Below are positions 20,694 to 21,075 of a DNA stretch of 28,163 nt, in pieces (position 1 is the first letter of the stretch; each line of letters starts with the position of its first letter). Below the pieces are notes generated by a model. That model had not been told where the DNA came from and searched no databases. It was given only the letters and a program-made list of their open reading frames with translations. The position numbers and the translations under genes were made by a program. Source of the DNA: Candidatus Saccharimonadales bacterium (GTDB lineage Bacteria > Patescibacteriota > Saccharimonadia > Saccharimonadales > Saccharimonadaceae); contig DASVSL010000009.1 of NCBI GenBank assembly GCA_036388095.1, positions 1-28,163 on the forward strand, written 5' to 3'.

Positions 20694-20735
20694 AAAAAGC
20701 GCCGCATAGTAAGGGTGGGCATTACTATACGGCGC
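20694..20735 (-). terminator. Strong intrinsic terminator of a minus-strand transcript
   Basis: Minus strand GCGCCGTATAGTAA-(9 nt)-TTACTATGCGGCGC-TTTTT: a 14-bp stem with one G-U pair, then U5. Confidence 0.8.
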
Positions 20736-21040
20736 CGTTCGACCCTTCAACCCACCCGGGCATACATTGCGAAGCGCTACATGTGTATTGATGTACGCAC
20801 AGTGCGCCCGAACCGAAGTTCGGTACTTTCATACTCGCTCTACATGGTCCGCCTGAAAAATCGGGTCCTCACCTCACACATAAATAGGCTAAGCAAGGGG
20901 TTAAAGGGGTTAGTATGCACGTGACTCTATAGCGTCTAACAAGGGAGGGTAGAAACTTGCCAAACAGAGTGCACGCACACTCTAACTTACGTTAGAATTG
21001 GGGGTATAAGGTGCGGTAGACTCGGCATGCGAGTTAACCG
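20694..21040 (-). ncRNA. Candidate unclassified structured ncRNA (~345 nt)
   Basis: Bounded by a sigma70 promoter and a terminator; no ORF longer than 35 codons seen; several stems, including a cUUCGg hairpin and a GAAA-capped hairpin. Not recognisable as tRNA, tmRNA, RNase P, SRP or 6S. Confidence 0.55.
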
Positions 21041-21046
21041 TAATCT

Positions 21047-21075
21047 ATAGTAGCACTTAGTTAACATAAAGTCAA
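21047..21075 (-). promoter_or_regulatory. sigma70 promoter driving the candidate ncRNA
   Basis: Minus strand TTGACT (21075-21070) - N17 - TACTAT (21052-21047), with an extended -10 TG. Confidence 0.7.

Follow-up and report, generated by a model that had tools for sequence, protein, structure and literature searches.

A structured RNA encoded divergently from dprA in Saccharimonadia and some other Patescibacteria, with copies in phages

The window analyzed here is a 28,163-nucleotide (nt) stretch of a Candidatus Saccharimonadales genome, and its minus strand between positions 20694 and 21040 almost certainly holds a stand-alone gene for a structured noncoding RNA (ncRNA) of approximately 345 nt, which is driven by its own promoter, ends at a terminator and belongs to an undescribed family. 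The gene is divergent from dprA. As judged from comparison of genomes, it is close to certain that this dprA-divergent RNA family matches no described family and is present in single copy throughout the class Saccharimonadia as well as in some other Patescibacteria. An independently transcribed structured ncRNA had been proposed in an earlier annotation made from the letters of this DNA (hereafter the first-pass annotation), and the conserved promoter, the conserved terminator and the covarying stems described below agree with that proposal. The lineage specificity that it had raised as a possibility does not hold in a narrow sense, as the RNA is found throughout Saccharimonadia, in other Patescibacteria families and in phages.

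Promoter, terminator and coding potential of the RNA gene

The promoter scan located TTGACT-17 nt-TG-n-TACTAT at 21075..21047 on the minus strand, with a score of 9/12 and an extended -10 TG, and TTGAC(A/T) lies at an unchanged distance in homologues from the order, the class and other classes. From the geometry of this promoter, transcription would start near position 21040. At the other end of the gene, a 14-bp stem with a U5 tail matches the covariance model R2 at 64.8 bits, is conserved in homologues and covaries in the RNAalifold set. The loop of this terminator is constant within the order, and CCACC-type loops are found in several other families. A simple terminator scanner overlooked this hairpin, since the scanner accepts loops of up to 8 nt and the loop here has 9 nt. 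Thus, the promoter and the terminator are both as the first-pass annotation had described them. The minimum free energy of the minus-strand RNA is -130.1 kcal/mol, which corresponds to z = -4.98 against shuffled sequence, compared to z = -1.87 for the plus strand. The parts of the gene, in the direction of transcription, are as follows.

21070..21075, minus strand: -35 hexamer TTGACT (promoter scan; TTGAC(A/T) at equal distance in homologues)
21047..21055, minus strand: extended -10, TG-n-TACTAT (promoter scan)
21014..21040, minus strand: P1, the 5' hairpin (compensatory changes in 9/9 pairs, 70 sequences)
20991..21014, minus strand: element (a), the nearly constant single-stranded C-rich linker GCACCUUAUACCCCCAAUUCUAAC (invariant columns in A1 and A2)
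20982..20986, minus strand: GUUAG, the strand common to the mutually exclusive helices P2 and P2'
20914..20979, minus strand: P3, a long irregular hairpin with the upper stem P3b (5' strand 20966-20979, 3' strand 20914-20928)
20944..20955, minus strand: element (b), the apical loop UUUCUACCCUCC with (C/U)ACCCUCC, a near-universal motif
20900..20908, minus strand: element (c), CCCUUUAAC, the 5' strand of P6 (RNAalifold and compensatory variants)
20758..20899, minus strand: variable middle domain, here a long-type insert of about 140 nt with GAAA, UUCG and CUG hairpins
20743..20757, minus strand: G-rich block GGGUGGGUUGAAGGG, including GUUGAAGGG (20743-20751), the 3' strand of P6
20694-20735, minus strand: intrinsic terminator with a 14-bp stem, the 9-nt C-rich loop UGCCCACCC (20713-20721) and a U5 tail

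Between promoter and terminator, the minus strand contains no open reading frame (ORF) longer than 35 codons, the same limit as given in the first-pass annotation, which left unmentioned a 93-codon GTG ORF on the plus strand at 20643-20924. This plus-strand ORF has no Pfam match and no protein-level conservation. In tblastn searches, none of the three short ORFs (two of the minus strand, with 35 and 30 aa, and the 93-aa ORF of the plus strand) showed a conserved reading frame; their matches are short and confined to the nucleotide-conserved terminator region, and the 35-aa ORF sits inside the variable insert. The first-pass annotation had seen no clear ribosome-binding site for its short ORFs, and a small protein gene is rejected here because no reading frame is conserved among the homologues. 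A riboswitch or other cis-acting leader is rejected as well: beyond the complete terminator, the next gene is convergent (a hypothetical gene in the window, pth in most homologues), so that the absence of a downstream minus-strand gene is confirmed.

Homologues and gene order within the order

In a BLAST search of 60 related genomes, one copy per genome was found in 27 of the 36 genera of the family and in eight other families of the order. The homologues share two conserved blocks (query nt 24-176 and 285-355), and owing to the variable middle their length ranges from about 220 to 390 nt. With the covariance model R1, which describes the 5' domain, a single copy was detected in 19 of the 24 family genomes, in all 21 genomes taken from 15 further families of the order, and in six genomes of a single genus (g124) of another family. 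An exact-pattern scan of named genomes returned Candidatus Saccharibacteria/Saccharimonadales as the carriers, including Nanosynbacter and Saccharimonas.

The gene order der - pth - [RNA, opposite strand] - dprA - topA is found in nearly all loci. The order of der, pth, dprA and topA is maintained irrespective of the RNA, and the RNA is in turn present without an adjoining dprA in L013, L016, L019 and L035, among other loci. In addition, a 9.8-kb contig of a metagenome-assembled genome labelled Chloroflexi (L075, SEAL01000024.1) carries the RNA at 127 bits, and the dprA next to it is of the Saccharibacteria type; this contig probably belongs to Saccharibacteria and was mis-binned.

Secondary structure and covariation

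Covariation was counted on 25 sequences and then on 70 distinct sequences. From 5' to 3', the layout consists of P1, the 24-nt C-rich single strand (a), P2'/P3 with loop (b), P6 around the variable domain, and the terminator hairpin. The covariation counts support P1, P3 and the upper stem P3b. Compensatory changes were found in 11/11 pairs of P3, in which 96% of the cells are paired compared to 26-41% with a slid partner. For the tested helices overall, 91.6% of the cells are paired (26-41% when slid), and the covariation score was reached by 0 of 500 shuffles. RNAalifold, applied to 14 short-type sequences, returned P1, P2'/P3, a 9-bp P6 enclosing P4 and P5, and the terminator. An alignment of the core hairpins from all lineages with MAFFT gave no consensus structure. 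The 5' hairpin (P1), the TCTAAC/GTTAGA pairing (P2) and the long stem (P3) had all been noticed in the first-pass annotation, and they are real and conserved.

P6 is a long-range helix. In the short-type consensus, CCCUUUAAC pairs with GUURAAGGG over 9 bp, and when the R1-aligned and R2-aligned halves, which were modelled independently, were joined, P6 was paired 9/9 in nearly all homologues. Compensatory variants of P6 occur in five lineages (L028, L034, L068, L195 and L196), and other families carry different yet complementary sequences at the same place. The first-pass annotation had paired AAGGGT with ACCCTT of the terminator loop; instead, AAGGG pairs with CCCUU of CCCUUUAAC. The other long-range contact it had put forward, between GGGTGGG and CCCACCC, can form, and GGGUGGG within the G block is a possible pseudoknot partner of the terminator loop; the pairing shows no covariation, however, and variants on its 5' side are uncompensated. 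L195 retains the terminator loop without the G block, and g124 lacks both. The GAAA, UUCG and CUG hairpins reported earlier are likewise present, but they lie inside the lineage-variable insert (20758-20899) and are not found in short-type homologues, which have P4 and P5, about 45 nt in total, in its place.

The strand GUUAG has two potential partners. It can form P2 with the upstream UCUAAC, which comprises the last 6 nt of element (a) (20991-20996), or P2' with the downstream CUAAC (20909-20913; CUAAY), stacked on P3. Each of the two helices is more than 92% paired across the homologues, and in genus g124 all three strands are altered jointly to AUUAC/GUAAU/AUUAC. This concerted change, together with the compatibility of both helices with nearly all sequences, suggests that the RNA alternates between two states. 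In several other families (f41 and f45), the upstream pairing P2 is not apparent. In some families, P6 and an extended P2' compete for one CCC.

These features bear on the possibility that the molecule is a catalytic, ligand-sensing or other non-pairing orphan RNA like raiA or OLE, in which P2/P2' would be a conformational switch. The maintenance of both P2 and P2', the three-strand change in g124, the competition between P6 and extended P2', the intricate multi-helix fold and a competence-gene neighbour (as raiA RNA has in comFC) would all fit such an RNA. On the other hand, P2 is not evident in f41, f45 and other families, no pocket-like conserved internal loops were identified, and the small phage copies described below drop the P6 domain and keep elements (a) and (b), which implies that the single strands carry the core function. 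On balance, we consider an RNA of this kind quite unlikely.

Spread across the class and the phylum

Because R1 is too specific to reach distant relatives, the distribution over the class and the phylum was assessed by synteny together with a controlled fold test and not by one covariance model. In 133 genomes of the class, dprA was located, and approximately 1 kb upstream of it was taken from 20 genomes (17 of other families and 3 of the window's own family that R1 had missed); one of these stretches was shortened by a contig end. Nearly all of them carry a TTGACA extended -10 promoter facing away from dprA and, about 100 nt downstream of the promoter, a long hairpin with the apical loop (C/U)ACCCUCC, followed by a P6-like enclosing helix and a terminator. 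In the strict fold test, which requires the motif in an apical loop on a stem of at least 14 bp, 13 of 19 class genomes were positive and the control strand gave 0/19; the background in the window's own genome was 11 matches per 1.6 Mb, both strands counted.

The same approach was applied to 80 genomes of other classes of the phylum. Five were positive at the 14-bp cut-off, namely all three genomes of f68, one of f87 and one of f113, and f73 gave one weaker positive with a 13-bp stem. In each of these positives (G259, G208, G235, G227, G282 and G308), a promoter lies 95-125 nt upstream. On the control strand, 2/80 were positive, divided into 0/20 in one set and 2/60 at the looser 13-bp cut-off. 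In the remaining genomes of other classes, the RNA was not found upstream of dprA, the one position searched there. By these sequence comparisons, the family is class-wide in Saccharimonadia and is present in at least four other Patescibacteria families. A further observation on these loci concerns DprA itself, whose frames outside Saccharimonadia are mostly about 360-400 aa, compared to about 285-300 aa in the class; the difference implies an N-terminal extension of about 85 aa.

The dprA-divergent arrangement is maintained across the class and in other classes, the -35 box of the RNA is 23 nt from the dprA start codon, and a plus-strand promoter-like site overlaps the -10 of the RNA. A local effect in cis is therefore conceivable, in which the RNA promoter interferes with or insulates the divergent dprA(-topA) promoter and the RNA itself is secondary. 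We regard this as very unlikely, because covarying stems and constant loops indicate selection on the RNA product, and because the RNA occurs without an adjoining dprA in the four loci named above and in phages without dprA nearby.

Known RNA families

Rfam 15 gave no match at the gathering threshold for the whole window, and at E <= 10 the locus gave chance matches only. Among 20 homologues from the order, the class and other classes, the search returned only four unrelated chance matches at E <= 1. Hence, the earlier statement that the RNA matches no recognized class stands. No published account of a dprA-adjacent RNA in Saccharibacteria was found in the literature.

The large housekeeping RNAs were considered individually. 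The window's own genome (808 kb, 92% complete) has its RNase P RNA (RF00010) on contig C86 at 176.9 bits, and this identity is rejected. Transfer-messenger RNA (tmRNA, RF00023) is rejected as well: ARAGORN was blank in the window, and the best full-length candidate is C10:2633-2990. Neither the RNA of the signal recognition particle (SRP) nor 6S RNA was found in this genome, where RF01854 was also blank, and a divergent SRP or 6S RNA was considered for that reason. For SRP RNA, the identity is rejected because no Ffh, FtsY or SRP RNA was found in the class. The small SRP RNA model RF00169 had no match in 151 class genomes, no Ffh M domain was found in 31, SRP54-type GTPases gave only P-loop-level matches of at most 24.5 bits in 121, and the own genome holds no ORF that combines DTAGR with a P-loop; the controls for these searches responded in 12-14 of 14 genomes. 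As an observation in its own right, the SRP pathway was not found in any sampled Saccharimonadia genome, which is unexpected for bacteria, and no statement of this was found in the literature either.

The 6S model RF00013 had no match in 26 genomes of the order, and the same model detects just 5 of 14 control genomes. An identity as 6S RNA is rejected because the consensus fold has a local 5' hairpin and a single strand and lacks an end-to-end closing stem. An RNA polymerase-binding RNA that is analogous in function to 6S RNA (or Ms1) would fill the apparent 6S gap in these 26 genomes and would accord with the strong promoter and the housekeeping-like distribution. We find this highly improbable, given that the fold is not a rod with paired ends around a central bubble and that the silence of a model with such low sensitivity means little. 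The raiA motif RNA (RF03072) is also rejected, as its covariance model was blank and its published architecture differs from that found here.

Loop (b) and the 3' tail of 16S rRNA

Loop (b) is the most conserved element of the RNA. It is unpaired in every fold, and its ACCCUCC is unchanged in A1, A2 and A4. The saccharibacterial 16S rRNA ends in GGAU(U/C)ACCUCCUU, and the loop reads (U/C)ACCCUCC. By sequence, loop (b) thus resembles the 16S 3' tail together with its anti-Shine-Dalgarno core CCUCC, apart from one additional C. The 16S 3' tail is GGAUUACCUCCUU in all Saccharimonadales sampled and in families f37, f40, f42 and f44, and GGAUCACCUCCUU in the rest of the class. Correspondingly, loop (b) contains CUACCCUCCAC in Saccharimonadales, and the loops of other orders and classes contain AUCACCCUCCUUU or GCACCCUCCUU; beyond the order, loop and tail are alike as far as AUCACC-CUCCUUU. 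Apart from the comparison with the loop, the GGAUUACCUCCUU tail bears a U where C is usual (C29:6834-6846 in the own genome).

Three other constant motifs of the ACCC type are present in the RNA, in elements (a) and (c) and in the terminator loop. Canonical Shine-Dalgarno sequences are in use in the own genome, where AGGAG, AAGGA and GGAGG show a 13- to 17-fold enrichment upstream of start codons. A separate observation is an enrichment of about 11-fold for TATAC and ATACT in the 20 nt before the first ATG of long ORFs. This pattern suggests that many mRNAs are leaderless or have very short leaders alongside those led by Shine-Dalgarno sequences.

One way to read the likeness is that Saccharibacteria and some other Patescibacteria employ the RNA as a decoy for the 16S 3' tail, one that captures Shine-Dalgarno sequences or a factor that reads the tail. 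We judge this distinctly improbable. If it were true, translation would be shifted between the Shine-Dalgarno-led and the apparently leaderless mRNAs of these reduced cells, and phages would carry full or minimal copies to seize control of translation.

Phage-borne and other mobile copies

Six IMG/VR viral contigs contain a 20-nt pattern taken from element (a). Three of these, which are related to one another, hold solid copies, with R1 scores of 87 bits (L314), 68 bits (L313) and 61 bits (L310); those of the L309/L311/L312 type (23-28 bits) are doubtful. A further small copy lies in an Actinomycetota isolate.

L310:537-638: mini copy, IMG/VR viral contig
L313:4154-4299: mini copy, IMG/VR viral contig
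L314:7974-8373: full-length copy with G block and terminator, IMG/VR viral contig
L099:4708-4852: mini copy, Antrihabitans sp. YC2-6 contig1 (NZ_JAEMNW010000001.1), Actinomycetota isolate

The mini genes of L310 and L313 have their own extended -10 promoter, element (a) and P2, to which L313 adds a P1-like hairpin. They end in a short hairpin with the exact loop (b), whose stem and U run form the terminator, and both lack the P6 domain. The R1 scores of the three mini copies are 59-68 bits, and their loop (b) sits on stems of differing sequence. In L310, L313 and L314, the RNA is divergent from a module of small ORFs and a RecT-like gene, which in L313 and L314 includes a nuclease-FtsK fusion gene, and in L313 the RNA directly follows endolysin and holin genes. 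No integrase (within approximately 3.5 kb), dprA or pth was found near the phage copies. The L099 copy is built in the same way, with element (a), P2, the exact loop (b) and its own promoter and terminator, and lies in a prophage-like island of about 50% guanine plus cytosine, next to PNKP-phosphatase, RlaP RNA-repair and DnaJ-domain genes; a prophage, horizontal transfer and a chimeric assembly are all conceivable origins of this island. Scans of viral contigs with 14-mers and 17-mers were at chance level (0 of 14 extra 17-mer loci scored with R1), and blastn against the INPHARED phages gave no match.

The mobile copies retain elements (a) and (b) and shed the rest, which points to the single strands as the working parts. 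This argument would lose its force if the phage copies were attachment-site fragments of phages that integrate into the RNA gene, as occurs with tRNA and tmRNA genes, since they would then be uninformative on function. Element (a) would offer a constant target of 24 nt, the copies of L310 and L314 are close to the locus ends (540 nt from the end, and stopping about 70 nt before it, respectively), and the L313 mini copy lies after the lysis cassette, where the phage attachment site attP is often located in temperate phages of Gram-positive hosts. Nevertheless, we hold this explanation to be unlikely: no integrase is found within the distance given above, the copies have their own promoter and terminator, the exact loop (b) is retained on stems of different sequence, and L310, L313 and L314 place the RNA equivalently relative to the RecT/FtsK-nuclease module.

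Proposed mode of action

The terminator, the lack of a downstream gene, and the copies in phages and at loci without dprA lead us to infer that the RNA acts in trans. Tentatively, and with somewhat less than even confidence, we propose a trans-acting RNA whose loop (b) and C-rich single strands pair with G-rich, Shine-Dalgarno-like sequences. The folded body would present the C-rich elements, above all the anti-Shine-Dalgarno-like loop (b). These elements would pair with G-rich, Shine-Dalgarno-like sequences in mRNAs and may thereby tune their translation or stability. In addition, a possible alternation between P2 and P2' may gate access to element (a).

Several results weigh against this proposal. 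A class-conserved scaffold of 260-400 nt is unusual for a base-pairing small RNA (sRNA), and an RNA of the ribonucleoprotein or ribozyme type fits at least equally well. Loop (b) exceeds the 16S tail by one C. At the U/C position, loop and tail agree in 16 of 19 compared lineages, with disagreement in f44, f50 and f87; given few independent changes and these three exceptions, the concordance is suggestive only. Exact complements of at least 9 nt to elements (a) to (d) occur in the own genome at chance level only, one of them being a 9-mer in RNase P RNA, and the genes with GGAGGG Shine-Dalgarno sequences share no obvious theme.

The main rival is that the RNA serves as a protein scaffold or decoy, either as the RNA component of a ribonucleoprotein or by titrating a binder of C-rich single strands or of the 16S 3' tail. 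Candidates for the protein are a KH-domain protein such as Era or KhpA/KhpB and a 30S assembly or processing factor. The RNA is large, class-wide and single-copy, with a fixed core, a variable periphery and a strong constitutive promoter, as are RNase P RNA, tmRNA, 6S RNA and raiA RNA, and it has four constant ACCC-type motifs. The KH domain of Era binds the 3' tail of 16S rRNA, which loop (b) resembles, and phage-carried copies would fit the titration of a host factor. The raiA RNA, moreover, binds KhpA/KhpB (PMC12968392). Conversely, no partner gene is linked to the RNA, as the der-pth-dprA-topA order is kept with or without it, and the extra C in loop (b) shifts the register relative to the 16S tail. 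We view a scaffold or decoy as somewhat unlikely.

Comparison with known RNAs

If the proposed pairing with Shine-Dalgarno-like sequences is right, the RNA would be most like the sRNAs with C-rich loops in its way of working, namely RsaE/RoxS of Bacillota, 6C RNA of Actinomycetota and the hairpins of Staphylococcus aureus RNAIII; the likeness is one of functional class and not of homology. These RNAs display C-rich motifs in hairpin loops or linkers, and the common feature is that unpaired C-rich motifs complement G-rich sequences of the Shine-Dalgarno type. A promoter and terminator of its own is shared with them, as is conservation over a wide taxon with 6C RNA. However, the Saccharibacteria RNA exceeds them 3- to 5-fold in size, its multi-helix body covaries and includes P6, its gene order is fixed, and its loop (b) copies the 16S tail over 7-8 nt instead of being a plain C run. 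None of these sRNA families gave an Rfam match even at E <= 10.

The likeness to the 16S tail has its own bounds. The loop (C/U)ACCCUCC(U/A) resembles GGAU(C/U)ACCUCCUU of the same organisms, but it is held in a hairpin and not at a free 3' end, it lies outside the ribosome, and the normal 16S tail is kept elsewhere.

The raiA motif RNA (ModT, RF03072) is similar in being highly structured and at least about 200 nt long, with a fixed core, a variable periphery and long-range pairings of the pseudoknot type. Both RNAs have a competence-gene neighbour, dprA in Saccharibacteria and comFC for raiA, whose gene adjoins comFC in 74% of cases (PMC10861870). In raiA RNA, P1 is closed by the 5' and 3' ends, and a linker UUAGA(C/A)GUAA is conserved (PMC12968392). 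The closing P1, PK1, PK2 and this linker define membership in the raiA family; in the Saccharibacteria RNA, the 5' end instead forms a local hairpin that is followed by a single-stranded linker, and the 3' end is a terminator hairpin. The two also differ in taxa (Bacillota and Actinomycetota for raiA, Patescibacteria here), and the abundance that is established for raiA RNA is for the Saccharibacteria RNA deduced from its promoter. Similarly, RNase P RNA, tmRNA, SRP RNA and 6S RNA are comparable in size, single copy, strong promoter and conservation over a large taxon, but RNase P RNA and tmRNA lie elsewhere in the genome, SRP parts were not found, and the fold is unlike that of 6S RNA.

A large part of bacterial diversity belongs to the Patescibacteria (the candidate phyla radiation), and to our knowledge almost nothing is known of their RNA biology. 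A class-wide, single-copy structured RNA would join raiA, OLE, ROOL and GOLLD among the widespread orphan ncRNAs of bacteria, and its anti-Shine-Dalgarno-like loop, its phage copies and its possible two-state helix provide hypotheses for the control of translation in minimal cells and their phages. The RNA is directly testable, since two Saccharibacteria, Nanosynbacter lyticus TM7x and Southlakia epibionticum, can be grown in culture and transformed (PMC10633639).

Neighbouring genes in the window

The genes on either side of the RNA gene are given below; pth and der are located upstream.

19900-20382, plus strand: hypothetical gene, neighbour of the RNA gene
21098-21946, plus strand: dprA, the divergent neighbour, with topA beyond

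Between the hypothetical gene and the RNA terminator, positions 20383-20690 make up approximately 300 nt of extra noncoding DNA, which holds a terminator-like hairpin on the plus strand (20441-20475) along with further hairpins. Most relatives have pth immediately adjacent to the RNA terminator, and this segment is therefore specific to the genome analyzed here.

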